DNA of 64,000 nt from Bacilli bacterium (GTDB taxonomy: Bacteria > Bacillota_I > Bacilli_A > ML615J-28 > CAG-313): assembly GCA_045536365.1 (NCBI GenBank), contig JAZSNL010000014.1, positions 19,473-83,472 of the forward strand. Reading direction: 5' to 3'. How positions within the stretch are numbered: the stretch's first letter is position 1; each line of letters begins with the position of its first letter. Both the position numbers and the translations under genes were made by a program. Of the stretch, positions 247 through 59,600 are shown piece after piece. The notes beneath the pieces are model-generated. The model was given only the letters and a program-made list of their open reading frames with translations. It was not told the DNA's origin and searched no databases.

Positions 247-260
247 TACTGCTCTTTTTT
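231..260. terminator. bidirectional intrinsic terminator shared by hpt (+) and the HD-domain gene (-)
   Basis: Hairpin aaagagcagta-attaa-tactgctcttt followed by a T-run. Both convergent genes stop inside or at the hairpin. Confidence 0.6.
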
Positions 261-912
261 ATATAATTTCTTGTTCATTAATTAATAATTTAAATTCAAG
301 TCCAAAATATTTTGTCGCTTCCTTACATAAATTCATACGAGATAAGAAAATTTCAAAATATTCAATTATTGGGCAAATACTAGTATCAATAGTTAATGTT
401 AAAGTTAAAGTTTTTTCAACTTTATCTATTGATACAATACTTTTTATAGCAGCATAATTAACACGATTATGAATATCATTAATATCTGCATTAGGACGTA
501 CTCTGTTTCTTCTAACATCAGTTTTATCAGCAATTATTAATGCTGAAGAAATTACATTTACAGGATAAGCTGATGATTCATCATGATTTCCTATTGCAGA
601 AACAACTTTTGCAATATCAACTGGATCCATTCCTAATCTTGTTAGAATATTAAAAGCCATTAATGCACCTGATTTTGCATGTTCATCACGATTTACCGCA
701 TTTCCTATGTCATGCATATATGCAGCTATTTTACCTAATTCAATGGTATGTTCATCATATCCTAAAGTTTCTAAAATATATTCAGTAACTTTTACACAAC
801 GATATAAATGATTATAGGCATGTTCAGTATACCCTACTTCTTCTAGATATTGATCAGCATATTCAATATAAGTATTAATTTCACTGTTTTTCTTTATATC
901 ATTAAATTTCAT
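259..912 (-). CDS. HD-domain metal-dependent phosphohydrolase
   Basis: 217 aa. H..HDIGN motif (AAYMHDIGN) and further His/Asp metal ligands typical of the HD superfamily. Confidence 0.75.
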   Translation of the reverse strand: MKFNDIKKNSEINTYIEYADQYLEEVGYTEHAYNHLYRCVKVTEYILETLGYDEHTIELGKIAAYMHDIGNAVNRDEHAKSGALMAFNILTRLGMDPVDIAKVVSAIGNHDESSAYPVNVISSALIIADKTDVRRNRVRPNADINDIHNRVNYAAIKSIVSIDKVEKTLTLTLTIDTSICPIIEYFEIFLSRMNLCKEATKYFGLEFKLLINEQEII

Positions 913-1856
913 AGATTCTCCTTGTTTTTAAACCAATTTACCGTTTTTTCAATTGTTTTCTCAAATGGAGTATGTTGATAATTTAAATCTCTTTTTGCTT
1001 TAGAACAATCATATTCAGGATTTGTTTTTAATAATTTAAATACAAGTGGTGATAAATAAGGAACAAAAGGAATACCTAACCATACTAAAAACATTGGTAA
1101 TTTTGGTACTTTTCTATTTACCCCAATAGCTTTATTAGTTAAGGAATACATTTTATATACACTTACTATTTCCCCTGACAAGATATAATCATCTTTATAG
1201 TCAGAATTTGCTAAATTTATAATAGCTTCATTAACATCATCAACATCAACAAAATTATATCCTCCTTTAATACCAAATTGCATTTTCATATCAATACTAT
1301 CTTGTACCATGCTACCGATTGCAGAAGGTTTCCAGTCATTAGGTCCTATTACTGCAGATGGATAAACAATAGCAGCATTAAAATCAGGATTTTGTTTTAT
1401 TAATTCTTTAAGATACGCAGTTGCAAGTGCTTTTGATTTACCATAGTTACCTTCAATTTTATTAATATCAATATATTCAGGCTCTTTTATGTATTCATTT
1501 TTCTTCATTTCTAAAGCGTCTACACTACTACAAAAAATATATTTCTTAACTTTTTTATTTAAACAAATATTAGCTATTAAATTTGCACCTTCATAATTAA
1601 TTTTATATACTTGTTCTTTATTCTTATTTTTTATATCAATTATTCCAGCTAAATGAATTACTATATCACTTGATGTAATATGAGTATTTAAAAATTTTTC
1701 ATTAAAGATATTTCCTACACAATATTCAATTGGTAATTTTTCAATTGATCTATCTATTTTTCGTACTAATACTTTTACTTCTTTATTTAAAGATATTAAT
1801 TTTCGTACTAGATTGTTTCCAATATGTCCTGTTGCGCCAGTGATAATGTATGCCAT
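909..1856 (-). CDS. NAD(P)-dependent epimerase/dehydratase family protein (extended SDR)
   Basis: 315 aa. N-terminal Rossmann motif ITGATGHIGNNLV, and YxxxK-type active-site region. Overlaps neighbours by 4 nt and 1 nt. Confidence 0.7.
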   Translation of the reverse strand: MAYIITGATGHIGNNLVRKLISLNKEVKVLVRKIDRSIEKLPIEYCVGNIFNEKFLNTHITSSDIVIHLAGIIDIKNKNKEQVYKINYEGANLIANICLNKKVKKYIFCSSVDALEMKKNEYIKEPEYIDINKIEGNYGKSKALATAYLKELIKQNPDFNAAIVYPSAVIGPNDWKPSAIGSMVQDSIDMKMQFGIKGGYNFVDVDDVNEAIINLANSDYKDDYILSGEIVSVYKMYSLTNKAIGVNRKVPKLPMFLVWLGIPFVPYLSPLVFKLLKTNPEYDCSKAKRDLNYQHTPFEKTIEKTVNWFKNKENL

Positions 1857-2992
1857 TATTTTTTACCTAATGCAGCAGTAATTTGTGCATTTGCAGTTTC
1901 TAAATCTTTTCTGATACTTATTTGTTGAGGACAAGCTTTTTCACATTTACCACATTTAATACATAAATCTGGTCCTTCGTTTTTACTCATCATATCATTC
2001 CAACCATATCTAACTACATTTGCGTTTTCAAATTTATAATAAGTATTCCATAATTTAAATACTCTAGGAATATTTACTCCTTTAGGACAAGGCATACAAT
2101 AACGACAATTTGTGCAATTATTTTTTATTCTTAAAGTAAGTTTACTAACTACTTCATCTATTACTTCATTATCTTCTTTTGTTAATGGTTTATAATTATT
2201 AAAAGTATTAATATTATCTTTTACTTGATCAAAATTTGACATTCCACTTAAAATAACTTTAATATTAGGAAATTGAGCTACCCATCTTAAAGCCCAAGAA
2301 GCAGTGCTCATATTTGGTTCTCTTTCAGATAATAAACAATTAATATCTTCAGGAAGACTTGCAAGAGTTCCACCTTTAATAGGTTCCATTATAACTAATG
2401 GAATGCCTTTTTCTTCAGCTAATCTATATCCTTTGATTCCTGCTTGTTCTTCTGTATCAGTATAATTAAATTGAATTTGACAAAAATCCCAATCATAATA
2501 ATTAATCATCTCTTCAAATACTTCATAAGAATCATGGAAAGAAAAACCTAAATATTTAATTTTTCCTTGTTTTTTTAATTCAATTAAATGACTTAATAAA
2601 TTTTCTCTTTTTACTTTTTCAAATTGAATCTTATTCATTGAATGCAATAAATAAAAATCAATATATTCTTTATCAACTCTTTTTAATTGATTTTCAAACA
2701 TTTGCTTTACTTCTTCTAAATTATTAACAGCCCACACAGGAAGCTTTGTTGCAAGAAAATAAGAATCACGAGGATACTTATTTAATACTCTTCCTACAAA
2801 AGGTTCACTTTCTCCACCATGATATGGAAAAGCAGTGTCATAATAATTTACACCAGATTGATAAGCATAATCAATCATTTTTTCAGCTAATAATTCATCA
2901 ATTTTTCCATCACTAGTTAATGGTAATCTCATAGTACCAAAACCTAATAATGAAGTTTTAATATTTAATTTTTCTAAATGACGATATTCCAT
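1856..2992 (-). CDS. aldo/keto reductase with C-terminal 4Fe-4S ferredoxin-type domain
   Basis: 378 aa. AKR TIM-barrel motifs in the N-terminal 300 aa. C-terminus carries two Cys clusters (CTNCRYCMPCP ... CIKCGKCEKACP), i.e. CxxCxxCxxxCP x2. Confidence 0.8.
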   Translation of the reverse strand: MEYRHLEKLNIKTSLLGFGTMRLPLTSDGKIDELLAEKMIDYAYQSGVNYYDTAFPYHGGESEPFVGRVLNKYPRDSYFLATKLPVWAVNNLEEVKQMFENQLKRVDKEYIDFYLLHSMNKIQFEKVKRENLLSHLIELKKQGKIKYLGFSFHDSYEVFEEMINYYDWDFCQIQFNYTDTEEQAGIKGYRLAEEKGIPLVIMEPIKGGTLASLPEDINCLLSEREPNMSTASWALRWVAQFPNIKVILSGMSNFDQVKDNINTFNNYKPLTKEDNEVIDEVVSKLTLRIKNNCTNCRYCMPCPKGVNIPRVFKLWNTYYKFENANVVRYGWNDMMSKNEGPDLCIKCGKCEKACPQQISIRKDLETANAQITAALGKK

Positions 2993-3001
2993 TTTATACC
3001 T

Positions 3002-4477
3002 CTAATATAATAATTTATTATTTTGAACAGGTTCCATTGTCACATTAATTCTTAATTTCTTTAAAGTATTTGTCTCTTCTGAACTTAACATAACACTTGA
3101 ATGTAATTCAGCACCTTTTAATTTTTCTAATTGATTAAGTGCAAGTTCTGCAGCAGGGTTTGTTGATGCAGTAATCGCAAGCGCAATTAAAACATCTAAT
3201 AAATTTAATCTTGAAGATGAACTATGTAGTTTATCTTTTTTTAATTCCTGAATAGGATTTATTAAAGAAACTGATATTAAATCAAGTTCATCAGGTAATT
3301 TTGCATAGTGTTTTAAAACATTGATAATTGCAGCAGCTGATGAAGATAATAAACTAGATTTTTTACCAGTTATGATCTTTTTATTTTTTAATTCTATCGC
3401 AACAACTGGAGTTTTATATTCTTCACTTTTCTTTATTGCTGCAGCAACACAACGTCGATTCTCAACAGAAATATTTAATTCCTTCATAATAACCGAAATT
3501 TTATCAACACATTCAGCGTTCAACTTACCAGCTTTAACTGCGCATAAAGAATCTAAATATCTTCTTATAATTTCTTGTTTGCTAGATTCACAAACACTTG
3601 CTTCATCTTTTATCGCATCACCAACCATGTTAACACCCATATCAGTCGGTGAAGCATATGGACAAGTTTCATAAATTCTTTCAAAAATCTTACTTAATAC
3701 AGGATATACTTCAATATCTCTATTATAAGTTGTAGTTTCTACACCGTATTTTCTTAAATGATAATAATCAATCATATTAACATCATTTAAATCAACCGTT
3801 GCGGCTTCATATGCCAAATTAACAGGATGTTTTAAAGGTAAATTCCATACAGGGAAAGTTTCAAACTTTGCATAACCGGATTTAATTCCTCTTATGTTAT
3901 CATGATATAGTTGAGATAAACAAGTTGCCATCTTACCGCTTCCAGGACCTGGTGCAGTAACAACAACAATTGGTTTATTAGTTTCAACGTAATCATTTTT
4001 ACCAAATCCATCTTCACTTAAGATTTTATCAATATTATGAGGATATCCAATAATACGATAATGTTTATATGTTTTAATTCCCAAGTAACCTAATTTAGTA
4101 ATATATGAATCAACAATAGGTTGATTTTCATAATGTGTAATAACAACACTATTAATAGGTAATTCAAATTTTTCAAATTTATCTATTAATCTTAAAATAT
4201 CATCTTCATAAGTAATACCTAAATCACTTCTTATCTTTGAACCTTGAATATCATTTGCGTTAATAACTAATACCATTTCAACTTTCTTTTTAAGTGTTAG
4301 TAATACTTTTACTTTAGAGTCAACTTCATATCCATTAAATACCCTTGAAGCATGATAATCATCAAATATTTTACCACCTATTTCAAGATATAATTTACCT
4401 TCAAATTGATTAACTCTTTCTAATATTTTATCGCTTTGTAATTTTAAGTATTTTTTATAATCAAATGATTTACCCAT
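3002..4477 (-). CDS. DUF1846/UPF0371 family protein
   Basis: 491 aa. N-terminus DYKKYLKLQSDKILERVNQFEGKLYLEIGGK and internal VVTAPGPGSGKMATC, KFETFPVWNLP and SPTDMGVNMVG blocks match the conserved UPF0371 family of Firmicutes. Confidence 0.7.
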   Translation of the reverse strand: MGKSFDYKKYLKLQSDKILERVNQFEGKLYLEIGGKIFDDYHASRVFNGYEVDSKVKVLLTLKKKVEMVLVINANDIQGSKIRSDLGITYEDDILRLIDKFEKFELPINSVVITHYENQPIVDSYITKLGYLGIKTYKHYRIIGYPHNIDKILSEDGFGKNDYVETNKPIVVVTAPGPGSGKMATCLSQLYHDNIRGIKSGYAKFETFPVWNLPLKHPVNLAYEAATVDLNDVNMIDYYHLRKYGVETTTYNRDIEVYPVLSKIFERIYETCPYASPTDMGVNMVGDAIKDEASVCESSKQEIIRRYLDSLCAVKAGKLNAECVDKISVIMKELNISVENRRCVAAAIKKSEEYKTPVVAIELKNKKIITGKKSSLLSSSAAAIINVLKHYAKLPDELDLISVSLINPIQELKKDKLHSSSSRLNLLDVLIALAITASTNPAAELALNQLEKLKGAELHSSVMLSSEETNTLKKLRINVTMEPVQNNKLLY

Positions 4478-4485
4478 AAAATCAC

Positions 4486-6513
4486 CTACTGTATTTCTAT
4501 TTTTTTAGTTTCAAAATCTTTTAAATATAATTCTAAATCTTCTTTTGTTTTATATATTATCTCTAAACAATGTAGTTGATCATATTTAATTTGATCTAAC
4601 ACATCAAAATGTTTAGTAAAATCAATAGTTCCACTACCCATTCTTCCATGTTTATCAGCTGTAGAATCATTATCACTATAATGAATATGATATAAATAAT
4701 CTTTTAATAAAGTTAAATACATAGTATCATCATATTCACTTACATGTGCATGACCTGTATCAAAAATGAATTTTAAATTATTAACATTCACTTCTTCGAT
4801 AATAAATAATATTTCTTCTGGTGAATAACCAATTTCACCATCACCAGGCATATTTTCAATCATTAAATTCATATTATATAGATTTGCATATTCAGCTAAT
4901 TCTTTAGTAACTTTAATACAATGTTTAATAATATCATCACGATTATTTTCTTTATCATACCATCCTAAATGTAATGTTAATTTTGTAACATTAAACTTTG
5001 CTGCATAATCAATTGCATCTTTTAATATTTTAACATTTTCTAAATAATTATCTAAATCACAAATACTATATCTTTTACCATGTGGTAAATGTAAAACTCT
5101 TTCTAAATAAGGATATTTTTCTAATAAACTATTAATTGAACTAGTATACTCTTCAAACTGACCTTCTTTTGTATGAATTGGATAGAATATTTCAATACCA
5201 CTAAATAAATTTTGATCAAATAAAGAATAATAAGATTCAATTTCTTCCTTGCTTCTTAATTGATTAATAGTAAAACACATCTTATCCTTTACTAATAATT
5301 TATTTATTGCAGAAATTCGATCACTCATAGGAGGATGAGAATATGATAATTTAACAATTAATGGATGTGGATTCAAATCAGCTAAATTATTTCTCGCAAG
5401 TTTTTTTAATCCAGTTATTAAATATCTTCCATAACCTTGTTCACATGCAAAACGATCCGCTGCATATTCATATTTTCTAGATAAATAACTAGTTCCCATC
5501 CCAACTACCGGCATAATAAAATCAAAAACTACTTCGGTTAAAATAATATAAATAAAACCATAATTTAATCCATCAAAGCCAAAATCAGTAAATAATCCTT
5601 TACAATAAGTCATTAACCAAATTAAAACAACAATAATAACAATATTTAATAAACTAGTAAATAAATTCTTAGTTGTATCTTTATGTTTACCATGACCAAG
5701 TTCATGAGCAAATACAGCTACTATCTCATCTTCACTCATAATATTAATTAAAGTATCATATAAAACAATTGTTTTAAATTTACCTAATCCAGTAAAATAC
5801 GCATTTGCTTTAGTAGATCTCTTTGATCCATCCATAACAAAAATATCTTTTACTTTATAACCATTATCAGTTAATAATTTTTCTAATTTAGATCTTAAAC
5901 TTCCTTCTTCTAAACTAACAAACTTATTATTAAGTTTTGCAAATTTAGAATTAAACATAAAGATAAAGATTAAAATTGCAAATACTATAGCTGTAAAAAT
6001 GATTAATGTCCATACACCAAAACTATCATGAAGAACAGCAAATAATTCAATAATACCTAATGAAATTAATATTTCAAAAATAATACCTTTAATTGTATCA
6101 CCAACGAAAGTCTTTTTATTAGTTTTATTAAATCCATACTTTTCTTCTATTTTCATAATATCAATATATCTAAATATAATTCCTGGAATAATAAAAGCAA
6201 TCTCATAAACTAAAATAACCCAAATAGTTGTTAATTCAAAATCATCTTTGCCAGGTAATAAATTAACAAAGAAACTAAAAGATTTAGTTAAAAACAATAT
6301 TAAGATAATAATAACATGAACTATTAAATTAATAAAAGTCAATTTACTTTTATCATGATTATATGATAACCATTTCTTATAAGTTGCTTCATCATAAATT
6401 TCTTTTACATTATCAGGAATAGGTCTATTAACAGACTTACTTTGTAAATTATGTAATAATGCATTATAAATGAAAGAAACAACTACTAAACTACAAACTA
6501 TAATATAAAACAT
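4486..6513 (-). CDS. fusion protein: N-terminal M48 (Ste24/HtpX-like) zinc metallopeptidase + C-terminal xylose-isomerase-like TIM barrel (sugar phosphate isomerase/epimerase, AP-endonuclease-2 fold)
   Basis: 675 aa. Multiple N-terminal TM helices. HEXXH zinc motif AHELGHGKH plus downstream E, and M48 C-terminal block ...YSHPPMSDRISAI. The C-terminal ~270 aa carries TIM-barrel motifs (HLPHG, LMIENMPG, FIFDTGHAH, HIHYSDND) like endonuclease IV / xylose isomerase-like enzymes. Confidence 0.65.
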   Translation of the reverse strand: MFYIIVCSLVVVSFIYNALLHNLQSKSVNRPIPDNVKEIYDEATYKKWLSYNHDKSKLTFINLIVHVIIILILFLTKSFSFFVNLLPGKDDFELTTIWVILVYEIAFIIPGIIFRYIDIMKIEEKYGFNKTNKKTFVGDTIKGIIFEILISLGIIELFAVLHDSFGVWTLIIFTAIVFAILIFIFMFNSKFAKLNNKFVSLEEGSLRSKLEKLLTDNGYKVKDIFVMDGSKRSTKANAYFTGLGKFKTIVLYDTLINIMSEDEIVAVFAHELGHGKHKDTTKNLFTSLLNIVIIVVLIWLMTYCKGLFTDFGFDGLNYGFIYIILTEVVFDFIMPVVGMGTSYLSRKYEYAADRFACEQGYGRYLITGLKKLARNNLADLNPHPLIVKLSYSHPPMSDRISAINKLLVKDKMCFTINQLRSKEEIESYYSLFDQNLFSGIEIFYPIHTKEGQFEEYTSSINSLLEKYPYLERVLHLPHGKRYSICDLDNYLENVKILKDAIDYAAKFNVTKLTLHLGWYDKENNRDDIIKHCIKVTKELAEYANLYNMNLMIENMPGDGEIGYSPEEILFIIEEVNVNNLKFIFDTGHAHVSEYDDTMYLTLLKDYLYHIHYSDNDSTADKHGRMGSGTIDFTKHFDVLDQIKYDQLHCLEIIYKTKEDLELYLKDFETKKIEIQ

Positions 6514-6525
6514 AAAATCCCTCTT

Positions 6526-7461
6526 TTATCTAAAGTCTAATACTTGATTTTTTATTGGATCAATAGGTGTAATTTTAATAGGCATAAAAACTAGTTCTTC
6601 TTCTTGATATTCTTCCGAAAACTGATAACTAATTCTTGCGGTTAAATGAATCCATGAATTATTCTTTAATTTTAATCCCATTAAATTATCACACAAATGT
6701 CCATATAATTGAATATCATCACTACAACAAGTCATAACTTTTCTACCAGCTATAAAAGTACCTTCTGGTAACTGTTTTGATAATATTACCATTGCATTTA
6801 ATTCAACAACTTTTCCATCATATCTTTCTTTATTATCAAAAGTATCAATATAGAAACGACCAAAATCTTGGTCTTCAATCTTAATCACTTCAGCATCAAT
6901 ATCATAAGGAAGAGGATCTTCATAAGCTTCCATAGCTTCAAAATTCTCATCCATTATTAAGATTTGCCCTTGTGAATTAATCATCTTTAAATTAACTTGA
7001 TAAGGAGTCAAATCCTGAGGATTATTAACCCTATTAAAAACAACAATATCAGATACCTTCATCATATCAACTAATCTTTGACGCATATTATTGAAATAAA
7101 TACCAAAAGTTGTAAAATCAATAAATAATAATAATTGTGCTAAACGACAAACACCAGGGAATTTTAAATTATTAACATCCCACATACCATTCATTTCAAT
7201 TACAATACGATTAGGCTTATGTTCTTTAATAGCTTTATCAAAAATCTTACTACTGAAATCTTTTTCTGAAGATATTCTAAATAAAACAATGTTATTTTGA
7301 ACTAAAAGCTCTTTAGGATATTCAACCTCTCCTTCTTCACACAAAACAAGTAATGTTTTTCCTCTACTTCCAAAACCATCATTTTCAAAAGTATTAATAA
7401 TAAATGATGTTTTACCAGAATCAAGAAAACCATTAATAATAAACGTAGGTATTTGTCCCAT
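6526..7461 (-). CDS. COG0523/CobW-like G3E GTPase paralog (degenerate, lacks CxCC metal motif)
   Basis: 311 aa. Walker A GFLDSGKTS. CobW-like architecture, but the canonical GCICC motif is replaced (LVLCEEGE). Start is 2 nt after the upstream COG0523 gene. Confidence 0.55.
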   Translation of the reverse strand: MGQIPTFIINGFLDSGKTSFIINTFENDGFGSRGKTLLVLCEEGEVEYPKELLVQNNIVLFRISSEKDFSSKIFDKAIKEHKPNRIVIEMNGMWDVNNLKFPGVCRLAQLLLFIDFTTFGIYFNNMRQRLVDMMKVSDIVVFNRVNNPQDLTPYQVNLKMINSQGQILIMDENFEAMEAYEDPLPYDIDAEVIKIEDQDFGRFYIDTFDNKERYDGKVVELNAMVILSKQLPEGTFIAGRKVMTCCSDDIQLYGHLCDNLMGLKLKNNSWIHLTARISYQFSEEYQEEELVFMPIKITPIDPIKNQVLDFR

Positions 7462-7462
7462 A

Positions 7463-8626
7463 TTATCCTCTTAAATTAAATAACTTTTCGATTTCAGCAG
7501 TTTTAATTTTAGAACCAATAACACAGAATCTACCAGTATAATCAGGTTGACCAAATCTAATTTCAAAATCACCTGATACAAAATCATAATAATACCATTT
7601 TGCGTTATCAGAAGCAGCAACAATACCTTTTGATCTTAATACCATACCATACTTTTCTTCATTACTTAATTCAGTTAAAATATATTCAAGTTCTAAATAA
7701 GTATAACTTCTTGCAGTTTCAACACCAAAACTTGTAAATACTTCTTCAGCATGATGATGATGTTCATGTCCACATCCGCATTCCTCATCATGATGATGAT
7801 GTCCACAACAACATTCTCCTTCATGATGATGTTCATGGTGTCCACAACATTCTCCTTCGTGATGGTGTTCATGGTGTCCACAACATTCTCCTTCGTGATG
7901 GTGTTCATGGTGTCCACAACATTCTCCTTCGTGATGGTGTTCATGGTGTCCACAACATTCTCCTTCGTGATGATGTTCGTGTTCTTCTTTTAATTCATTT
8001 AATAATTTGTCTTTTAATGATGTTTTTTCTTCAAGTAATGCAAGTAATTGTTTACTATCTAAATTAAAAATACTAGTTGTGATAATATTTGCATGATCAT
8101 TTTGTTGTTTTAAAAGTTCAATTGTTTGATTTAAAACATCATTTTGCATTTTATCAGTTTTACTAATAATTATTGTGTTAGCAGTTCTTACTTGATCATC
8201 AAAGAATTCACCGAAGTTTTTCATATAAACTTTACATTTAGGGCCATCTACTACTGTTGCAAGAACATTAACTTCGATTCCTTCAATTTCGTTTACCGCT
8301 TTAACAATGTCTGATAATTTACCTACACCAGATGGTTCAATAACGATTCTTTCTGGTGAATAAGTTTCAATTACTTCTTTCATTGATGTCGCAAAGTCGC
8401 CAACTAATGAACAGCATATGCAACCTGAATTAATTTCTTTAATATTAACACCTGATTCTTTTAAGAAAGAACCATCTATTCCTATTTCTCCAAATTCATT
8501 TTCGATTAAAACTAATTTTTGTCCTTGATAAGCTGATTCAAATAATTTTTTAATAACTGTTGTTTTTCCAGCTCCAAGGAAACCTGATATAATATCTACT
8601 TTAATCATATTTTCACTTCCATTCAT
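7463..8626 (-). CDS. COG0523 family zinc metallochaperone GTPase (CobW/YciC-like) with internal His/Cys-rich tandem repeat
   Basis: 387 aa. Walker A GFLGAGKTT, CxCC motif GCICCSL and the ENEFGE block. A linker of five tandem HHEHHHEGECCG repeats sits before the C-terminal CobW_C-like domain. Confidence 0.85.
   Translation of the reverse strand: MNGSENMIKVDIISGFLGAGKTTVIKKLFESAYQGQKLVLIENEFGEIGIDGSFLKESGVNIKEINSGCICCSLVGDFATSMKEVIETYSPERIVIEPSGVGKLSDIVKAVNEIEGIEVNVLATVVDGPKCKVYMKNFGEFFDDQVRTANTIIISKTDKMQNDVLNQTIELLKQQNDHANIITTSIFNLDSKQLLALLEEKTSLKDKLLNELKEEHEHHHEGECCGHHEHHHEGECCGHHEHHHEGECCGHHEHHHEGECCGHHEHHHEGECCCGHHHHDEECGCGHEHHHHAEEVFTSFGVETARSYTYLELEYILTELSNEEKYGMVLRSKGIVAASDNAKWYYYDFVSGDFEIRFGQPDYTGRFCVIGSKIKTAEIEKLFNLRG
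7765..7990. repeat. 36-nt tandem repeat array (about 6 copies, first and last diverged), in-frame inside the COG0523 gene
   Basis: Four near-identical copies of gtgatggtgttcatggtgtccacaacattctccttc, flanked by diverged copies. Encodes (HHEHHHEGECCG)n on the minus strand. Also generates the spurious ORFs at 7693-7953 (-) and 7751-7993 (+). Confidence 0.9.
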
Positions 8627-10551
8627 TATTTACTTTTTATTATTAGTTTACATAGTAGATCAGAAAATCTTACTGGATTTTCTATTTTTAATCCTTCAAT
8701 TAATAACGCTTGATTATATAATAACCACGCAATATCATTAATTTCATCAGGATTTTCATTATATATTTCTTCTAAAGCTTGAAATAAATCATGATAAGGA
8801 TTTATCTCTAATATTCTATCTGCTTTAATTTCTTCACCGTCTGCTGATTCTGCTAATACTTTTTCCATTTCAAAGGAAATTCCTTCTCCTGCAGATAAAC
8901 ATACTGGTGAATCAGTTAATCTTTTAGAAATAATAACATCTTTTACAAGATCTTTTAGTGCTGTTTTTAACGCATTTAATAGATCTTTTTTAGATTCTTT
9001 TATTTCTTCTATTTTTTGATCTTCTTCATCATTTAATAATTCATCTAATTCATCTTGATTAATTGCTTTAAAATTATAATCTTGATATGTTCCTAATATT
9101 TTCATAATAAATTCATCAATATCATCTTTTAATATTAATACATCATATCCATGTTTTTTAATTAAATCCATTTGTGGCATCGCAGAAACGTCTTCTTTTG
9201 ATTTAGCGGAAACGTAATATATTGCTTTTTGATTTTCTAACATATTTTCAATGTATTTTTTAAATGATACTTTTGTGTCTGAATTTAATGTTTCATAAAT
9301 TAATAAATCTTGTAAAAGATCTTTTTTTGCACCATAATTTTCATAAATACCAAATTTTAAATTAATTCCATATTGTTCAAAGAATTCATTATATTTATCA
9401 AAGTCATCAGTCATTAAACTTGATAAACGATTAATAATTTTCTTTTCTATATTTTTAGCCATTTGTGATAATACTTTGTTTTGTTGTAACATTTCACGAC
9501 TAATATTTAAAGCTAAATCATTTGAATCAACAATACCTTTTATAAATCTTAAATAATCAGGTAATAATTCTTTACATTTATCCATTATAAAGATACCTTT
9601 AGAATATAATTGTAATCCTTTTTCATAAGAATTAGAGTTTAAATTGAAAGGTGCTGTTTTAGGAACAAATATTAACGCATTGTAATTAATATTACCTTCT
9701 ACATTAAACATTAAATATAATAATGGTTCTTCGTATTCTGAAAACTTTTGCATATAGAAATCATTAACTAATTCATCAGTTACATCTTTCTTTGCTTTTT
9801 TCCAAATAGGAATCATTGAATTTAGTGTTTCTTCAACTATTTCAGTTTCATATTTTCCTTCAATAATATCACCATTTTCATCTAAAACAGGTTTTTGTTT
9901 TTCAACAAACATTGTGATTGGATATCTTATATAATCAGAATATTTTTTAACTAATTGTTTAATACGATATTCACTCAAATATTGATCATAATCATAATCT
10001 TCAGTGTTAGTTTTTAAATATAGTGTTATTTTAGAACCTGGATTAGCTTCTTTGATTTGTTCTACTGTATAAGTTTCACTGCCTTCAGAAGTAAATAAAT
10101 AAGCAGATTCATCAAAATATGATTTTGTTTCAACTGTTACTTTTCTTGCAACCATAAATGCTGAATAAAAGCCAACACCAAATTGTCCTATTGATTCTAA
10201 ATCAGGATTACCTGCTCCTTCTTTTTCTTTTTCTAGTTTTTCCATAAAAGCTAAAGTACCAGATTTTGCAATAGTACCAAGATTATCGTTTATTTCATCA
10301 TATGTCATACCTATTCCATTATCAGAAATAGTAATAGTTCTTAATTCTTTATTAATTTCAATATGTATTTTATATTTATCTCTTTTTGGTACATCTTGAT
10401 TAGTTAATGTTAAATAATGATATTTATCAACCGCATCAGATGCATTTGATAATAATTCCCTTAAGAATATTTCTTGATTTGTATAAATCGAATTAATCAT
10501 TAAATCTAATAATCTTTTCGATTCTGTTTTAAACTCTTTTACTTCCTTCAT
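8626..10551 (-). CDS. htpG: molecular chaperone HtpG (Hsp90)
   Basis: 641 aa. N-terminal ESKRLLDLMINSIYTNQEIFLRELLSNASDAVDK ATPase (GHKL) signature. Length and middle/C-terminal domains are typical. Confidence 0.9.
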   Translation of the reverse strand: MKEVKEFKTESKRLLDLMINSIYTNQEIFLRELLSNASDAVDKYHYLTLTNQDVPKRDKYKIHIEINKELRTITISDNGIGMTYDEINDNLGTIAKSGTLAFMEKLEKEKEGAGNPDLESIGQFGVGFYSAFMVARKVTVETKSYFDESAYLFTSEGSETYTVEQIKEANPGSKITLYLKTNTEDYDYDQYLSEYRIKQLVKKYSDYIRYPITMFVEKQKPVLDENGDIIEGKYETEIVEETLNSMIPIWKKAKKDVTDELVNDFYMQKFSEYEEPLLYLMFNVEGNINYNALIFVPKTAPFNLNSNSYEKGLQLYSKGIFIMDKCKELLPDYLRFIKGIVDSNDLALNISREMLQQNKVLSQMAKNIEKKIINRLSSLMTDDFDKYNEFFEQYGINLKFGIYENYGAKKDLLQDLLIYETLNSDTKVSFKKYIENMLENQKAIYYVSAKSKEDVSAMPQMDLIKKHGYDVLILKDDIDEFIMKILGTYQDYNFKAINQDELDELLNDEEDQKIEEIKESKKDLLNALKTALKDLVKDVIISKRLTDSPVCLSAGEGISFEMEKVLAESADGEEIKADRILEINPYHDLFQALEEIYNENPDEINDIAWLLYNQALLIEGLKIENPVRFSDLLCKLIIKSK

Positions 10552-11303
10552 TATTCTTCCCCTACATTTGATTCATATTTAAATGAATCCATTAATTTTA
10601 ATTTAAATAAGTTATTTTTATGTAATCTGTCAATTTTTTCCTTAATTTCCTTAGGAGGTTCAATTCCTTCTCTAATATATTGATCTAACATTTTGTAAGT
10701 AAAGCCTAAATTATCTTCATCTGTTTTACCACATAATCCATCAATAGGAGTTTTTTCAATAAATTTAGCAGGTATTCCTAATTCTCTACCAATTGAAATA
10801 ACTTCCGTAACAGTAAAATTTGATAAAGGACTAAAATCTCCTACAGAATCACCGTATCTAGTAGAATATCCTACCCAGTCTTCTGATAAATTACATGTAT
10901 TTACAACTCTGCCATTTTTACATTGTGATACTGCATAAATCGTTGACATTCTAATACGTGGTGGTAAATTGAATTTAGCTTGATCAGTAATTTTAATTGA
11001 TTCAGGAATATTTTTTAATACACCATCTACTGCATCTTTAATATTTACAACTACATAGTCAATTCCTAAGAATTCACATATTTCATATGAATAATTAATA
11101 TCAAATTGATCACCTTGTGGCATTAATACACCAAATACACGTTCTTTACCAAGAGCAGCAACGCAAATTCCTGCAGCAACACTACTATCTTTTCCACCTG
11201 AGATACCAATTACCGCATTACATCCTTTTCCGTTTTCTTCAAACCAATTTCTTACCCATTCTACACATTTATTCATTGCGTCTTTAGCGTCAAATTTATA
11301 CAT
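10551..11303 (-). CDS. nadE: NH3-dependent NAD+ synthetase
   Basis: 250 aa. PP-loop SGGKDSS (GISGGKDSSV). Length and architecture of ammonia-dependent NadE. Confidence 0.8.
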   Translation of the reverse strand: MYKFDAKDAMNKCVEWVRNWFEENGKGCNAVIGISGGKDSSVAAGICVAALGKERVFGVLMPQGDQFDINYSYEICEFLGIDYVVVNIKDAVDGVLKNIPESIKITDQAKFNLPPRIRMSTIYAVSQCKNGRVVNTCNLSEDWVGYSTRYGDSVGDFSPLSNFTVTEVISIGRELGIPAKFIEKTPIDGLCGKTDEDNLGFTYKMLDQYIREGIEPPKEIKEKIDRLHKNNLFKLKLMDSFKYESNVGEE

Positions 11304-11312
11304 AACACACCT

Positions 11313-12413
11313 CTATTTTTTTGATAATATTATTAATGGTACTTCTAATTCATCAATTGTTGTTCCTGCGTGATGTCCAATAAAAGGAACACTCGAATTT
11401 TGATTAAAAATAAAATATTTTTTTGTTTTACTAACCGCAAGATAATCTCCCATAGAGATATTTGTTGATTGATGAGGAATACCATATCCATAAATATTTA
11501 AATCTAGTACTTCTTGTTTATTAAATAACATATAATCATTACTAAAGTATTGATTAAATTTCTTTTCAAATTCTTCTTTTTTGTTTTCTTTCACATGAAA
11601 TATAGTTGCACGAGCTTCTGCAGATGGTAATCTATCTAAACAATCAAGAATATCTTGATATTCATATAGATTTAAAGGTTCGATATCTACTTGTCCATGA
11701 TCCGCAACTATAACAATTAAAGTGTCTTGATTCATTGAATGATAGAACTTTTCTAATTCATCATTCATTTTTTTAATAAGTTCTTTTACATTTTTACTAT
11801 TAGTACCCTCTTCATGCATTAAAGCATCAGGATTATCCCAATAAAAATATGTAAAAGTAGGATTATCTTTATTTATTCTTTTATTCAAAGCATCTAATGC
11901 TTCATTAAAAGTTTTATAGCCATTTTCTCTAAAAGATGGATAAATATCATCAGCATCAAGATTTTCAATATCTGACCAAAAATTTTTAAATCCAATAATA
12001 TCATTTACTTTTAAAGAATCATATTTTACATCTTGATAATAATCTAAATTAGTAAATAAAGTAAGAGAAGGATCTTCACAAGAAAGATATAAATGCCAAC
12101 CTAACCACCCATGTTCAATAGGAGTTAATCCCGTTGTTACAGATGTTGTTGCAGCAACGGTAGTAGGTGGAAAAACACTACTTATATTATCAATCATTTT
12201 TTGATTTAAAAAATCATCTTTTGATAAATTCTTTTCTAAAATTTTTGTTCCAAGTCCATCTAATAACATTAAAACAATATGTTGGTAATTTTTATCTAAT
12301 TCATTATCTAATAATTTTAAAGTTTGATGATGAATTTTATTACCATAATATTTAATTAATGAGTTACTTACTGATATTAGACTATTATTATAATCAACAT
12401 TTATCTTTTTCAT
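11313..12413 (-). CDS. alkaline-phosphatase superfamily protein, nucleotide pyrophosphatase/phosphodiesterase (NPP)-like
   Basis: 366 aa. MLLDGLG, FPPTTVAATTSVTTGLTPIEHG (AlkP-core metal/nucleophile Thr motif) and VADHGQ. RBS aggag 6 nt before the ATG. Confidence 0.65.
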   Translation of the reverse strand: MKKINVDYNNSLISVSNSLIKYYGNKIHHQTLKLLDNELDKNYQHIVLMLLDGLGTKILEKNLSKDDFLNQKMIDNISSVFPPTTVAATTSVTTGLTPIEHGWLGWHLYLSCEDPSLTLFTNLDYYQDVKYDSLKVNDIIGFKNFWSDIENLDADDIYPSFRENGYKTFNEALDALNKRINKDNPTFTYFYWDNPDALMHEEGTNSKNVKELIKKMNDELEKFYHSMNQDTLIVIVADHGQVDIEPLNLYEYQDILDCLDRLPSAEARATIFHVKENKKEEFEKKFNQYFSNDYMLFNKQEVLDLNIYGYGIPHQSTNISMGDYLAVSKTKKYFIFNQNSSVPFIGHHAGTTIDELEVPLIILSKK

Positions 12414-53695: not shown

Positions 53696-56600
53696 TTATT
53701 CTAATGTAGCTTTATAAGCAGCGTATGCAGCATCTAACGCATCTTTACTTGCAAGAACACCATAATCAGATGTTGCTGTAGTTTGAGCAGCAGCATAATA
53801 GTTATTAGTATAAGTTATTGTACCTGAGCCTTTTGTAGTTAATTTAAATGCAGTCTGACTATCTAAATAGTTATACATAATATTTTGTTTAGATCCTGTT
53901 TGACAATCAACAAAGTTAAATATATTACCTCCAAGATTATATAATTCATTACCAATAAATGTAACAGATGAATTAGCAGTTTGATTAGGGAAATAGAATC
54001 CTGAACCAATTCCTGTTCCTCCATTGAATACATTATCTTGAACAGTAATAGTAACATCTTGTGTCATTAAAGGTCTAATGTATAAAGTATAATTGGCTGT
54101 TGCCCATAAACATTCATTATTATTGAAAACGAATGTTCCGCGTACATCGTTACATCTTGCTACTTCACTATTTGAATGAGATGTACCACCATTGCTGAAT
54201 TTATTATTTTGTATATCAGCATTAGTAAGTGTACCATAAATTGCCATTGCGTTTCTTCCAGCGGCACCAGTACATGTTATATTGTTACCGATAAATACAA
54301 AACCGTTGATTGCAACATCACTTGCAATGATTCCTGTTCTACCACCAGTAGTTGACTTACCTGTACCTGTAATAATATTATTTTTAACTGTTAAATTACT
54401 AGTTGCAGTTGCTACGTAAATAGCAGATCCAGTACCTGTTATTGATACACCATTCAAAGTAAATCCAGTCGCACTTACTGAAACAAGACCTTTAATAATT
54501 GCTTCAGAACTTCTTGTTTCATTATAAGCAACACCGTAGTTAGGACCTACTAATTTAATGTTTGCAACAGAAATAGTTAATGCTTCTGAATATGTTCCAG
54601 CAAATACATAAATTACATCATTTTCTTGTGCAGCTTCTAAAGCAGCAGTAATAGATGTAAAGATTTGAGTTCCATATGAATACTTAGTTCCATTAATTCT
54701 ATAATTAGAAACTTCGAATCCAGCATTTACAAATAATGTAGGAGCAGCTTCAGTAATTGTTGCAGCTTCTTCATCTGTTAATTCTAATTCAATAACTTCA
54801 TCTTCAGCCCATTTAGCATATAATTGATATGCTTTTTGAGAGCCTGCTTCGATTTCAGTTAATGGAGAACCTGTAAATTCAGCATTGTCATACCAACCAC
54901 CAAAGATATAACCTTCTAAACTTGGAGTAGGTAAAGCAGTTCCATCTGCTTTTAAATATTTTTCAGCGTAATTGCTACGATCAAATGCTTCTTGAGAATA
55001 TACAGTACCAGTAATAGTACAACTTGAAGATGTTTCAGCAGGAATACCAGCAAGAGTTACATATGAACCAATATAAGTTGCTTTATTATTATAAATATTT
55101 GCTAAGCTTTCATTTTCAGCAGCTGCAGGATCATACCATGTAATTGCATAATTATAAGGTTTAGTAATATTTGCATTTCCACTTACGATTTCAGAAATTA
55201 CATATAAATCTTCAATTTGAGTTTCTTGTAATAAAATATAGTACCAGTATTTAGGAGTTGCAGTTGTTAACATACCATTTCCAGCACCTCCACTATTATA
55301 TGTTAAATATCTTGTAACTGTAAATGTAGTTTGAACTTTTTCTGAGTCGTATACCCATTCAGTACCCATGTTATATGATATTTCATAAGCATTTTCAACC
55401 CAATTAGCATATAATGTTACATTTCCAGCAGAACCGCTTTCAATCTTGGTAATAGCTTCACCTGCGAATTCAGCATTATCATACCAACCAAGGAATGTAT
55501 GATTTTCTTTTGTTGGAGTTAATAAAGTGATATCAGCAGAATTAACGTTATATTTTGCAGGAGCAAATAATGCAGTACATCCAGCTTTAATCGCAGAATC
55601 AGAGTAATCAGCAGTAACAAAGTTAGCATTTTGAGTATATTTAGCTTGTCCTACCCAACCTCTTAATTCATAAGCAATTTCATAGATATAGTTACCATTT
55701 GCTGCATGTAATTCAGCTTGAGAATTATATTTATTGAAGTTAGAATAAGCAGGTTTGTTAGCACTGCTAGCAACTGTAGCAATATATTGAACTAACCAAT
55801 TCCATTTAGCTCTATAAGTAGCATTGTATAAGAATAATGAAGCATCACTTATTTCATCCCATGAACCTAATGCATAGAATGTTTCAACTGTATGAGTTTT
55901 ACCTCTTGCAGCGTTATAATCAGCTAAGAAATCTGCAACTGCAGCTTCATATGATTCGTATTGAATTAATGAACCACCATCTAATTCATAAGAAATAGTA
56001 TAAGTTGCTAATTCCCAAACTGCTGTTAATTCAATAACACCAACTACAGGAGTTTCAAAATCATAATCAACACCATTTAATTGCCATTTAACAAATGTAT
56101 ATCCTTTTAATTCAGGATCAACTGGTTTTTCTGCTTTTGAACCATGGTTAACATTTTGAGTTTCAACATCAGAACCACCATTTGAATTAAATGTTACAGC
56201 ATAAGTAATAGCCTCAAATCCAGCATATAATTTTAAATCACCAGTAGCAGTTGTAGGGATTTCAGTTAATGCATCACCAGTTAAGTCTGCATTTAAGAAC
56301 CAACCTAAGAAAGTATAACCATCTTTTGTTGCGTTAGGTAATGCAGTTGCAACACCTTCAATATATTCAGTAGGTAATCCTTCTGCAGTACCACCATTTA
56401 ATTCATAAGAAAGATTTGAAGAGATAGCGTTAGCCATCCAACCAGCATATAACACTATATCGTTATTATCATCTTTTGTTATTTCAGTAATAGGAGCACC
56501 TGTGCATTCAGCATTATCAAACCAACCAGTAAATGTATAATCAGTTCTAGTAGGAGTAGGTAATACTAATCCAAATCCAACTTTATAGAATGTAGGAGCA

Positions 56601-59600
56601 TCTACTAATGTACCTTCGTTTAAATTTAATGTTAATGATTTAGAAGGAGCCATGAAATAAGCATATTCATATTTTCTTGTTTCTTCATCAGCTAAAGCAC
56701 TACCTGCAGTAACACCAGCACCAGTAACAGTAGCAGGAACAGAATTTAATACTTGTCCTTCAGAATCTAAGTATAAGTTCTTATCAAATTGAACTGGTTT
56801 ACCACCGTTAATATGAACATACTTAGTAACATTTTCGAATACATTGAATCTTACATCAACTAATGTAGCAGATACACCAGATTCAAATAGACCATCAATA
56901 TTTTGAGTATCACCAGTGAAATGATTATCATAAACTAATGCAGAACCAATTCTAATTCTTAATAATGCAGCTGCAGAGTTAGATACACCACCACATGTTG
57001 AAGCATCAACATTATTAGAAATAAAGTTAACTTTTTCTAATCCAGCAGTTACCCATACAAAGAATTGACCGATATTATCAATATCACAATTTTGAACTGT
57101 TAATACAACTGGGTTAGTAGTAGAAATAGTTCCTTTATAGAATGTATTCATTCTAGTAATATGACAATTATTAAATGTTAAATTATAGGCTTTACTACTA
57201 GGTTGGAAATAAACACCTGCAGATGTTGCAGCAGCAGAACCTCTAAGAGTAACTGATTCAAATCTAATATCACTTGCAGCAACATTACTAGATACATTAG
57301 CAGTAACTGTAATTTCAACACCTTCAACACTTTGACCTACAAATGTTAATGACTTATTAATAACAGAGCCTAATGTATATTTACCATCTAAGATATTAAT
57401 AACAGAATCATTTTTTGCAGATGAAATAGCATCATTTAAGTTATTAAATAAGTTAACACCATAGAAATAATGATTTTCATTATATAGAACACATGCATTT
57501 TCAACAGCATCAGCTGCTACTACTATATTAGTAACATCAGCTGCCACTACTGTAAATTCAATAGTTCCTTTAATTAAAGGATCAATCATTGAAGAAACAG
57601 TAATTATAACATTACCTTCAGCAATAAATTTAACAATACCATTTTCAACAGTTGCAATTTCTTCATTAGCAGAAGCATAAGAAACTAAAGTTTGATATCC
57701 TTCAGGTCCTTCAAATGCTAATTGTAATGCTAAACTAGCACCTAACATAACTTTATTTGTAGTTGCAGAAACTGTAATTGATGTTGGAGCAACTGGTTCA
57801 ACAATAATTAATAATGCTTTCTTAGCAGCATCTAATGCTTCTTCAACACCTTCAACAGAAGTTGCAGCTGCGATTAAGCCTTTTTGAACTTCTAATTCAG
57901 CAGCAAATTCATCATAATTTTCTTCATATTTAGAAGCTTTAACGATTTCATCAGTTAAAATATATTCAGCTAATGCTTCTTGAGCAAGATTCTTAGCATT
58001 ATCAACAACATGAATCCATTTAGCATGTAATTCAAGATTACCTGTAGAACCTTTTTCAATCTTAGCGATTGCATTACCGTTAAATTCTGCATTATCAAAC
58101 CAACCTAAGAAAATGTGATCAGCTTTAATAGGTTGTATTAATTCAATATCTTCAGACTCAACAGTATATTTAGAATCAGCTAAGCAAGCCATAAATTTAG
58201 TTTTTACTTCTTCAGTTGAGTAATCGGCTGTATGATAGTTAGCATTCTCAGTATATTTAATTTGTCCTACCCAACCTCTTAATTCATAAGCTATACTGTA
58301 AATATAGTTACTATTAACAGCATTAAATTCAGCTTGACTATCATGATCATTAAATGCTTCCCAAGCTTTCTTATTAGCAGAACCAGCAACACTTGCAATA
58401 TAATCTACTAACCAAGTCCATTTAGCACGATAATTAGCATTATATAAGAATAATGATGCAGCGCCAATTTCACCCCAAGAGCCTAAAGAAGAGAAAGATT
58501 CAACAGTATGAGAAGTTCCTCTTGCAGCATTATAATCTTTTAAGAAATCAGCAACAGCTTCTTCGTATGACGCATAATTTCTTAAAATACCTTCATTAGT
58601 ATTATAAGAAATACTATATTCAACAATTTTCCAAGTTGCAACAACTTCTACATCTTCTGCAGGCATTGTAGCAGGAACTTCAGGCATCCAACCAGTAAAT
58701 GTATAACCAGCTTTTTCAGGTGCAGCAACAGCGGCAATTTCTTCTAAGTAGTCATATTCAACTTCTTGTTTAACACCATCAACATTAATTGTTAATGTAT
58801 ATTGATTAATTGTCCACTCAGCAACAACTTCTACATCTTCTGCAGGCATTGTAGCAGGAACAGCAGGTGTCCAACCAGCGAAAGTGTAACCAACTTTTTC
58901 AGGTGCAGCTGGAGCAGCAACTTCAGCTTGATAGTTATATTTAACAGTTTGTTTAACACCATCAACATTAATTGTTAATGTATATTGGTTAATTGTCCAT
59001 AAAGCAACAACTTCAATATCAGTAGCAGGCATTGTTGTAGGAATAGCAGCAGACCAAGAAGAGAATGTATAACCAACTTTTTCAGGTGCAGCTGGAGCAG
59101 CAACTTCTTCTTGATATTTATATTCAACAACTTCTTTAACACCATCAACATCAACTGTTAATGTATAAGAATTTCTTGAATAATATACTCTTAATACAAG
59201 AGATCCATCAGCTAAGATAGTAGCTGATTCTAAAGCATCTTTATGTTCAGCATTATGTTCAAAACCAGTAACTGTTCTAACAACAGCTTCTGCTTCAGAA
59301 CCAGTTTCACCAAATAATGATTCAACTTTTGCATCTTTCACATAAGAGCCATCTAATGCTTCAAAGTAATGTTCAACTTTATAAGCAGTATTTGTATTAG
59401 ATGTCCATGTTGCAACTAATTCTAAATCCTTAGCAGGCATAGATAATTCAGCAAATGCTTCGCCTTCTAGTGTCCAGCCTAAGAATGTATAACCAGTTTT
59501 AGCAGCAACACCTAAATTTAATGCTTGGCCGTATTTATAAGTTTGAGCTTCTTTTTCTTCTCCACCAGCAGCATCAAATGTTACTTTGTAAGAATTTCTA

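Follow-up and report, generated by a model that had tools for sequence, protein, structure and literature searches.

The 64,000-nucleotide stretch of Bacilli DNA analysed here (hereafter, the window) carries on its reverse strand an open reading frame, 4486..6513 (-), that runs from an ATG start across 675 aa with no internal stop. A sequence-only reading had described it as a single 675-aa ORF with two domains, and the domain search bears this out. Three Pfam matches, all above the gathering score, are recovered: Peptidase_M48_N (PF16491; aa 29-190, 75.6 bits, gathering score 27) and Peptidase_M48 (PF01435; aa 201-405, 116.7 bits) in the N-terminal half, and AP_endonuc_2 (PF01261; aa 437-658, 123.5 bits, gathering score 31.1) in the C-terminal half. 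All the motifs quoted in that reading occur in the translation, namely HELGH (270-274), HLPHG (475-479), ENMPG (553-557), FDTGHAH (584-590) and HIHYSD (609-614), and neither domain is truncated. The features of the gene are:

4486-6513, reverse strand: whole fused coding sequence, 675 aa with an ATG start plus the stop codon (4486-4488), with the fused homologs P0001-P0005.
5281-6513, reverse strand: Ste24-type M48 zinc metalloprotease half, aa 1-411, from PF16491 and PF01435, the alignment to 4IL3, the Foldseek match to 4AW6 and hydropathy.
5692-5706, reverse strand: HELGH zinc-binding and catalytic motif (H270, E271, H274), kept in every fused protein and also in L002, where the two genes are separate.
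5467-5469, reverse strand: E349, third zinc ligand (YEYAAD, equivalent to the Glu of Ste24 EYQAD), from the alignment to 4IL3; kept in all fused proteins.
5266-5295, reverse strand: fusion junction, aa 407-416 (LVKDK-MCFTI), from aligning its DNA and protein with the two separate genes of L002 and from AF2 secondary structure.
4489-5280, reverse strand: MJ1311-like / endonuclease IV-like TIM-barrel half, aa 412-675, predicted cytoplasmic, from PF01261, the PDB profile search, AF2 and Foldseek.
4561-5091, reverse strand: span of nine putative metal ligands, invariant in 40 of 40 members of the TIM family and aligned to the Endonuclease IV (Endo IV) ligands.

The protease half shows the hallmarks of the Ste24 type (M48A): the HExxH motif with a downstream Glu, the five-helix N-terminal domain of PF16491 and seven transmembrane helices predicted from hydropathy (aa 2-20, 58-76, 96-114, 143-161, 169-187, 284-302 and 319-337). 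In phmmer, aa 4-407 align to Ste24p (4IL3) with an E-value of 3e-41, and the Foldseek comparison with ZMPSTE24 (4AW6) yields a target TM-score of 0.87-0.90. The likeness to these CAAX prenyl protease 1 type enzymes thus extends over the full length, although the identity is only about 26-27% and the fused protein adds a C-terminal TIM barrel of 264 aa that is absent from every solved homolog. Of the Ste24/HtpX-like polytopic M48 protease that had been proposed from the sequence, the polytopic Ste24-type part stands; HtpX (M48B) membership was rejected, the best HtpX model, a curated equivalog, reaching 52.3 bits where its cutoff is 285. Bacteria are not known to have prenylated CAAX substrates. 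The positive-inside tally predicts that the N terminus of this half lies outside and the C terminus in the cytoplasm.

The C-terminal half had been read as a TIM barrel of the xylose isomerase-like / endonuclease IV fold, and the structural comparisons agree with the Pfam match. Modelled alone with AF2, this half folds into eight strand/helix repeats with a pLDDT of 96.4, and every Foldseek match is a PF01261-type barrel. The top-ranked structure is that of MJ1311 from Methanocaldococcus jannaschii (3WQO; E 4.5e-17, TM 0.78-0.83), deposited as 'D-tagatose 3-epimerase-like protein'. Searched against the PDB, the family profile likewise retrieves 3WQO (E 1.5e-31), with Endo IV (about 5e-13) placed above the epimerases. 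By both profile and fold, therefore, MJ1311 is the nearest solved relative, and the ligand motifs are common to the two; however, MJ1311 is archaeal, stand-alone and only 22-24% identical to the TIM half. MJ1311-like TIM barrels are not a curated family, and in our literature search MJ1311 appeared only in a published table, as one of the predicted homologs of Endo IV (PMC2770678).

The nine putative ligands are H475, H515, E553, D585, H588, H611, D620, H622 and E651 (H64, H104, E142, D174, H177, H200, D209, H211 and E240 in the numbering of the TIM half). They align to H69, H109, E145, D179, H182, H216, D229, H231 and E261 of E. coli Nfo (1QTW, sequence verified), that is, to all nine ligand positions of the trinuclear metal site of Endo IV, and to the corresponding residues of the window's own Nfo. 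For the first His, hhalign is equivocal (H67), whereas both the family-profile and the window-Nfo alignments give H64. The roles of these ligands in the Endo IV metal site were reportedly set out by Hosfield and colleagues in 1999. Despite this likeness and the common superfamily, the TIM half scores 27.1 bits with the Nfo models against a cutoff of 244, its N-terminal ~60 residues fail to align with Nfo, and it is only 24% identical to the Nfo of the window. Since the window carries a canonical nfo at another position (61215-62159; 406.5 bits, cutoff 333), we rejected the TIM half as the AP endonuclease of the cell.

That a small stand-alone protein of the AP endonuclease 2 superfamily can hydrolyse a phosphodiester outside DNA has a precedent in CbiR, a cobamide-remodelling phosphodiesterase with a non-DNA substrate that depends on conserved His/Asp/Glu metal ligands (PMC7733943). 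The TIM half is not itself a CbiR: it reaches 37.2 bits with NF041277 against a cutoff of 105, there are no cobamide-biosynthesis genes among the neighbours, and the cobW-type neighbours are COG0523-type GTPases.

It might also be argued that, rather than a phosphoesterase, the C-terminal half is an isomerase or epimerase of sugars or sugar phosphates. Databases label its homologs 'sugar phosphate isomerase/epimerase', its best NCBIfam matches are IolO (50.6 bits, cutoff 300) and hydroxypyruvate isomerase (44.7 bits), and, after 3WQO, the best Foldseek matches are ketose 3-epimerases and UlaE, with ketose 3-epimerases placed above Endo IV in overall fold. Ketose 3-epimerases, UlaE and IolO indeed have in common with the TIM half the barrel fold (TM about 0.7-0.8) and the E-D-H-E subset of ligands. 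However, identity to these enzymes is only 12-19%, and the curated cutoffs, 300 bits or more, are missed widely by scores of ~50 bits; no curated equivalog among them (IolO, UlaE/SgbU, hydroxypyruvate isomerase, psicose epimerase) is reached by the TIM half or by stand-alone members of its family. Sugar epimerases are not known to use ligands beyond the E-D-H-E metal site, such as extra His/Asp residues, whereas the TIM family has five additional invariant positions (H64, H104, H177, D209 and H211) that match the Zn1/Zn3 ligands of Endo IV, and the sequence profile ranks Endo IV higher than the epimerases. We therefore consider an isomerase or epimerase function possible but unlikely. The nine Endo IV-type ligands, MJ1311 as the closest structure and the separate canonical Nfo in the window suggest instead that the TIM half is most likely a two- or three-metal phosphoesterase, hydrolysing phosphodiesters or phosphomonoesters.

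The fusion of the two halves is genuine. An identical junction (..KD-KMCFTINQ..) is present in five further 90%-identity clusters (P0001-P0005; 66-98% identical), and P0002 alone was observed on nine contigs, drawn from a number of independent assemblies. Scanned with a degenerate junction pattern, the window gives one match, compared with 0 expected by chance, and the pattern also occurs in 4 of the 4 fused loci retrieved, as opposed to 0 of 62 other loci; the same pattern, validated on the window and the fused loci, gave 0 matches in the JGI metagenomes. Purifying selection acts on both halves, with dN/dS values of 0.17 (M48) and 0.19 (TIM) in comparison with an 85%-identical relative and of 0.29 and 0.31, respectively, in comparison with L001. 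The junction region itself shows synonymous divergence with the protein conserved (dN/dS 0.07-0.30), and the catalytic residues of both halves are intact in all fused proteins. In the AF2 model of the full protein (pLDDT 92.9, pTM 0.78; each domain above 90), the halves are joined with no linker: the final M48 helix extends to aa 406, and strand beta-1 of the barrel starts from aa 411. The modelled arrangement of the domains is weakly constrained because only six sequences cover both.

The closest unfused relative, L002 (57% identity in M48 and 60% in TIM), encodes the two proteins as separate genes with the spacing TAG T ATG (stop, 1 nt, ATG). The gene order in L002 is that of the fused loci, HtpG-CobW-CobW/DUF1980-M48-TIM-DUF1846-...-AKR-SDR; the fusion thus originated from adjacent genes. 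The aligned junctions show that translation of the TIM gene formerly started at Met412 (codon 5278-5280, reverse strand). The split order in L002 and this identity of Met412 indicate that the fusion arose via loss of the stop between the two genes. Under this model, a stand-alone TIM gene would have landed directly downstream of a Ste24-type M48 gene in an ancestor of what is now a small group of uncultured Bacilli with low GC content (27%), and the unfused intermediate would persist in L002. A small change would then have deleted the stop and restored the frame, such that the complete protease (aa 1-411) runs into a complete TIM barrel from Met412.

With only a stop and 1 nt between the genes in the ancestral arrangement, a small error, an indel or a missed stop in sequencing or assembly, could imitate a fusion; however, the same in-frame junction in six diverged versions, from independent samples and assemblers, and the synonymous divergence with conserved protein across it render such an artefact barely credible. 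Decay of one half after an accidental fusion was rejected as extremely improbable, given that dN/dS is 0.17-0.31 in both halves, that the catalytic residues and metal ligands are complete in both halves of every fused protein and that both modelled domains have pLDDT above 90. The fusion could also be nominal, with the TIM barrel mostly still translated separately from an internal start at Met412, which is kept in all fused versions and, in the window, is preceded four nt upstream by AAAGGA. The spacing between AAAGGA and Met412 is short, however, and the Shine-Dalgarno-like sequence is not conserved (L062 and L063 carry AAAAGATAAGATG), so that we regard separate translation as improbable.

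The fused architecture is narrowly distributed. Searching 1.84 billion representatives exhaustively recovered it in one 50%-identity cluster, with no members from NCBI or UniRef sources, and among 185,579 reference species we detected neither the fusion nor any TIM relative with more than 55% identity. A word-index search with the TIM half missed the fused proteins that the exhaustive search recovered, and hence silence of the word index does not equal absence. The close relatives are all ENA/Logan metagenome contigs, whereas the remoter TIM homologs come from metagenome-assembled genomes labelled Bacilli, Acholeplasmataceae, Coprobacillus, Erysipelotrichaceae and Mollicutes. Our literature search found no description of a fusion between M48 and a xylose isomerase-like domain. 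The sequence-only reading had called the fusion unusual and was not aware of it as a described architecture, and this survey, which confines it to one small clade, is in accord with its rarity. Separately, we observe that the persistence of the fusion through divergence down to 66% identity, along with the 1-nt spacing in L002, would also suit a functional link.

The gene neighbourhood is likewise restricted to close relatives. Pfam identifies the neighbours that the sequence-only reading had listed: DUF1846, AKR with 4Fe-4S, SDR, HD and two cobW-type proteins. The fused gene belongs to a co-directional run of at least 13 genes, from 259 to 12413, with gaps of at most 12 nt, that also holds HtpG, NAD synthase and a phosphodiesterase; a strong hairpin lies at 229-259, and a promoter scan (119 sites compared with 134 expected in AT-rich DNA) was uninformative for operon boundaries. 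This gene order is common only to the close relatives L001, L002 and L062-64. Within 10 kb of the TIM homolog, M48, DUF1846, AKR, SDR and CobW were found in 0 of 57 other TIM loci, M48 and TIM were adjacent in none of these 57, and neither TIM nor the window's neighbour genes accompany M48 in the 4 other M48 loci. The suggestion that the operon reflects a membrane-associated, metal-dependent pathway is accordingly not sustained: the order is confined to close relatives, and the neighbours do not recur at the other loci. Outside the clade, the conserved partner of the TIM family is DegV, which accounts for 30 of 37 downstream ORFs.

The gene is a real, lineage-restricted, end-to-end fusion of adjacent genes, and we consider it probable that its halves act independently, the barrel being a metal phosphoesterase tethered to the membrane. 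Because the C terminus of the protease is predicted to be cytoplasmic, a cytoplasmic enzyme can hang from it, and the fusion would be tolerated. Both parts are predicted to stay active enzymes, the protease with HELGH and E349 and the barrel with its nine ligands. The main effect would be to anchor the TIM enzyme at the cytoplasmic face of the membrane, in a fixed 1:1 stoichiometry with the protease; the activities are most likely independent, and membrane tethering is most likely the sole consequence.

Alternatively, the fusion might have been selected for coupling, as in a 'Rosetta-stone' protein, if the protease and the TIM enzyme share a membrane substrate or pathway; for example, the TIM half might hydrolyse or remove a phosphoester on a lipid, a lipid-linked molecule or a membrane protein that is later processed by the chamber protease. 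The 1-nt spacer between the genes in the sister lineage, the maintenance of the fusion under purifying selection, the rigid linker-free junction in a confident AF2 model and the linkage of stand-alone TIM genes to DegV, a fatty-acid-binding family that makes a membrane or lipid substrate conceivable, are all compatible with such coupling. However, no M48 gene lies near TIM in the 57 other TIM loci and no TIM gene near the four other M48 relatives, the fusion arose once, within one 50%-identity cluster, and gaps of at most 12 nt make accidental read-through fusions easy. Furthermore, beta-1 begins four residues after the protease, so that the barrel would turn its N-terminal face, which is not the catalytic one, to the protease; because of this orientation, which follows from topology and the AF2 model, it is unlikely that the active sites are directed at one another. 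Selection for coupling thus appears rather unlikely. Slightly more doubtful still is a specific form of functional link, in which the barrel would use three metals to cleave phosphodiesters in a membrane lipid or a lipid-linked phosphoester, as would fit the DegV linkage elsewhere. If true, the Ste24-type chamber protease and the phosphodiesterase would form a bifunctional processing enzyme at the membrane, for which there is no described counterpart. Overall, the fusion appears to reflect the recent joining of neighbouring genes rather than a shared pathway.

The importance of the fusion is modest: it represents a clean, datable birth of a multidomain membrane protein via stop loss in a compact, tightly packed genome, with the split intermediate state still visible in a sister lineage. 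It also calls for caution, in that function should not be read from a fusion or operon whose linkage is limited to one small clade. The more useful by-product is a small MJ1311-like family with a full Endo IV three-metal site that coexists with a canonical Nfo and generally has DegV as its linked partner. In Mollicutes-like Bacilli, these proteins are candidates for a new phosphoesterase activity.

The M48-TIM fusion in this window is real, and its domains were named correctly in the sequence-only reading, which had proposed a single 675-residue ORF joining an M48 protease to a xylose-isomerase-like TIM barrel. The frame is uninterrupted, the sequence motifs quoted in that reading are all present, and a Pfam search recovers both parts of this new domain architecture made of known kinds:

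4486-6513, minus strand: fused ORF, ATG start, 675 aa, no internal stop
aa 29-190 of the fused ORF: Peptidase_M48_N (Pfam, above gathering score)
aa 201-405 of the fused ORF: Peptidase_M48 (Pfam, above gathering score)
aa 437-658 of the fused ORF: AP_endonuc_2, xylose-isomerase-like TIM barrel (Pfam, above gathering score)

Among 5.8 billion protein clusters, five further clusters contain both domains (P0001-P0005; 666-675 aa; 98, 85, 69, 69 and 70% identity to the window protein, respectively), all with the same junction, KD-KMCFTINQ. Scanned as a degenerate DNA pattern, the junction occurs once in the window, with 0 expected by chance; each of the four fused loci that were fetched has it, and the 62 other loci all lack it. 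An assembly artefact can be dismissed given that the same junction recurs across diverged clusters and independent assemblies (P0002 alone is present on nine contigs, from several of these), and that between relatives the junction has undergone synonymous changes with the protein kept. Nor is one half decaying: dN/dS is low in both (protease 0.17 and TIM 0.19 in comparison with an 85%-identical relative; 0.29 and 0.31, in the same order, with one of about 69% identity). Moreover, the catalytic residues of the protease (H270, E271, H274, E349) and the corresponding TIM residues (H475, H515, E553, D585, H588, H611, D620, H622, E651) are intact in every fused protein. Taken together, these lines of evidence exclude both explanations for practical purposes.

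The fusion arose once and recently, within one restricted lineage, when two neighbouring genes were joined. Among unfused proteins, P0006 (57% identity) is closest to the protease half. It lies on a contig, L002, with the gene order of the window (HtpG, CobW, CobW/DUF1980, M48, TIM, DUF1846, ..., AKR, SDR), where two distinct genes encode M48 (409 aa) and TIM (263 aa; P0121, 60% identity). The L002 junction reads ...AAG GAG AAT GAA TAG, a single T, and then ATG CGG ATG TGT TTT ACT ATT AAT CAG, compared to ...GTA AAG GAT AAG ATG TGT TTT ACT ATT AAT CAA in the window; from this comparison, Met412 of the fused protein is the former TIM start. A small deletion taking out the stop codon and the 1-nt spacer would be sufficient to make the fusion, in which neither domain is truncated. 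Because the junction is identical in all fused versions, it points to a single event. Met412 is conserved among the fused proteins, and the SD-like sequence upstream of it is AAAGGA in the window and AAAAGA in two close relatives (L062, L063), a comparison that gives no sign that the TIM half is still translated by itself from Met412.

The phyletic survey proposed in the sequence-only reading confines the fusion to one 50%-identity cluster. The TIM half was run with HMMER exhaustively against 1.84 billion representatives (50% identity), and with just 25 of them at E <= 1e-30 the family is a small one; the sole M48-fused representative is P0005, the window's own cluster, and the remaining long matches, at 376, 450 and 489 aa, leave no room for an M48 domain. 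A scan of 185,579 species, one genome each, located TIM relatives at 49 loci and none above 55% identity; thus, the fused and L002 lineages are missing from the reference species set. The fused proteins come from ENA and Logan assemblies only, none from NCBI or UniRef, and the junction pattern has no match in JGI metagenomes. The TIM relatives are MAGs labelled Bacilli, Acholeplasmataceae, Coprobacillus, Erysipelotrichaceae and Mollicutes; the window itself has a GC content of 27% and mostly TAA stops.

The protease half is of the Ste24 type: residues 4-407 align end to end with yeast Ste24p (4IL3, E 3e-41), and in Foldseek the model has a target TM-score of 0.87-0.90 to ZMPSTE24. HtpX models fall far under their cutoff, and this identity was rejected. 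Hydropathy indicates seven TM segments, and a positive-inside tally places the 188-283 loop with HELGH and the entire tail past residue 338 in the cytoplasm, so this predicted topology would readily allow a cytoplasmic enzyme to follow at the C terminus.

For the TIM half, MJ1311 (3WQO) is nearest by both sequence profile (E 1.5e-31) and fold. In the profile search it is followed by several Endo IV structures (~5e-13) and D-tagatose 3-epimerase (1e-11), and in Foldseek by ketose 3-epimerases and UlaE; neither the window protein nor the stand-alone TIM members score high enough for any curated NCBIfam model. All twelve His/Asp/Glu positions checked are invariant in the family. The window also encodes a canonical endonuclease IV and has a very long ORF:

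53696-60451, minus strand: very long ORF, about 2250 aa
61215-62159, minus strand: canonical endonuclease IV (nfo), 314 aa, 406.5 bits on NF002196 (cutoff 333)

With this Nfo present, the TIM half is a second, divergent Endo-IV-like protein in this genome. With hhalign, the TIM family (numbered from the start of the TIM half, H64 being H475) aligns with E. coli Nfo, the reference sequence being identical to 1QTW, at H104/H109, E142/E145, D174/D179, H177/H182, H200/H216, D209/D229 and H211/H231. In BLASTP with the window Nfo, which is 32% identical to E. coli Nfo and 24% to the TIM half, the first His (HAPY/HLPH, H64) and the last Glu (ILET/CLEI, E240) also line up; by these alignments, the TIM half has all nine Endo IV metal-ligand positions. 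To our knowledge, sugar epimerases of the AP_endonuc_2 superfamily use only the E-D-H-E subset of these ligands. The Endo IV ligand identities are those reported by Hosfield et al. 1999, a paper listed as reference 86 in PMC7733943. Given the nine positions and the precedent of CbiR, a phosphodiesterase on a non-DNA substrate within the same superfamily (PMC7733943), we infer that the TIM half is probably a phosphoesterase with two or three metals, and a different enzyme from the AP endonuclease of the cell.

The sequence-only reading had also taken the surrounding genes as an operon hinting at a common pathway. The neighbours it named (HD, SDR, AKR with 4Fe-4S, DUF1846 and two cobW-type proteins) are there, within a long run of genes that all point the same way, at most 12 nt apart, and to which HtpG, NAD synthase and a type I phosphodiesterase also belong:

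229-259, end of the minus-strand run, directly after the HD gene: strong palindromic hairpin, 13-bp stem, A and T runs on the flanks, plausibly a bidirectional terminator closing the run
3002-4477, minus strand: DUF1846/UPF0371 protein, 730 bits on PRK13663
6526-7461, minus strand: weak cobW nucleotide-binding domain (30.8 bits) plus DUF1980 C-terminal domain, an unusual architecture adjoining the fused ORF
7463-8626, minus strand: CobW/COG0523 GTPase, 387 aa, tandem repeat at 7757-7982

The pathway interpretation is without support. The gene order is confined to close relatives, two of which (L001, L002) have additional genes between DUF1846 and AKR. In the fetched flanks of 57 stand-alone TIM loci, tblastn found no homologs of the window genes (M48, DUF1846, AKR, SDR, HD, CobW, HtpG) except for one weak and unrelated AKR match; the genes flanking four other M48 relatives are unrelated, and there is no DUF1846 gene near TIM or M48 in any of these loci outside the clade. 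Given these absences, the mixed gene run and the insertions, the supposed operon is ordinary synteny of close relatives in a compact genome. At 30 of 37 loci (including L007, at 8001-9682, L009 and L011), DegV comes directly after stand-alone TIM, and the upstream gene is variable, with Metallophos/5'-nucleotidase in about 12 of 39, often at a 1-nt gap. L007 and L009 also carry, two genes downstream of TIM, a second AP_endonuc_2 paralog that is CbiR-like (66 bits on the CbiR model, under the cutoff of 105).

Several neighbouring genes have features of their own. In every member of the clade, 8 nt separate the fusion from the DUF1846/UPF0371 gene downstream of it, and PRK13663 is still named 'hypothetical protein' by NCBI. 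The cobW-DUF1980 architecture, whose DUF1980 domain is the C-terminal part of TIGR03943 ('putative permease subunit'), is kept in L001, L002 and L062-64. The repeat in the CobW/COG0523 GTPase gene (36 nt, ~5-6 copies, 89-97% matches) encodes HHEHHHEGECCG-type His/Cys-rich units between the GTPase and CobW_C domains. The unequal lengths of the homologs (387 aa in the window, 409 in L001, 377 in L002, 358 in L063), together with a break of the gene in assembly L062, suggest that copy number varies between relatives.

An AF2 model of the fused protein, computed from a mixed alignment of the six fused sequences with M48-only and TIM-only homologs, has a pLDDT of 92.9 and a pTM of 0.78. The final protease helix spans residues 396-406 and TIM strand beta-1 residues 411-416, leaving no flexible linker. 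The active sites of TIM barrels lie at the C-terminal ends of the strands. Since beta-1 starts four residues past the protease, the non-catalytic face of the barrel should, in this model, be turned towards the protease, and with this orientation the two active sites are unlikely to face one another. Both halves are predicted to remain functional, and most likely they work independently. The MJ1311-like TIM family with Endo IV ligands and its DegV linkage leave a slim chance that tethering to the membrane is adaptive, with a functional fusion. The most interesting outcome is this uncharacterised family itself, together with its linkage to DegV.
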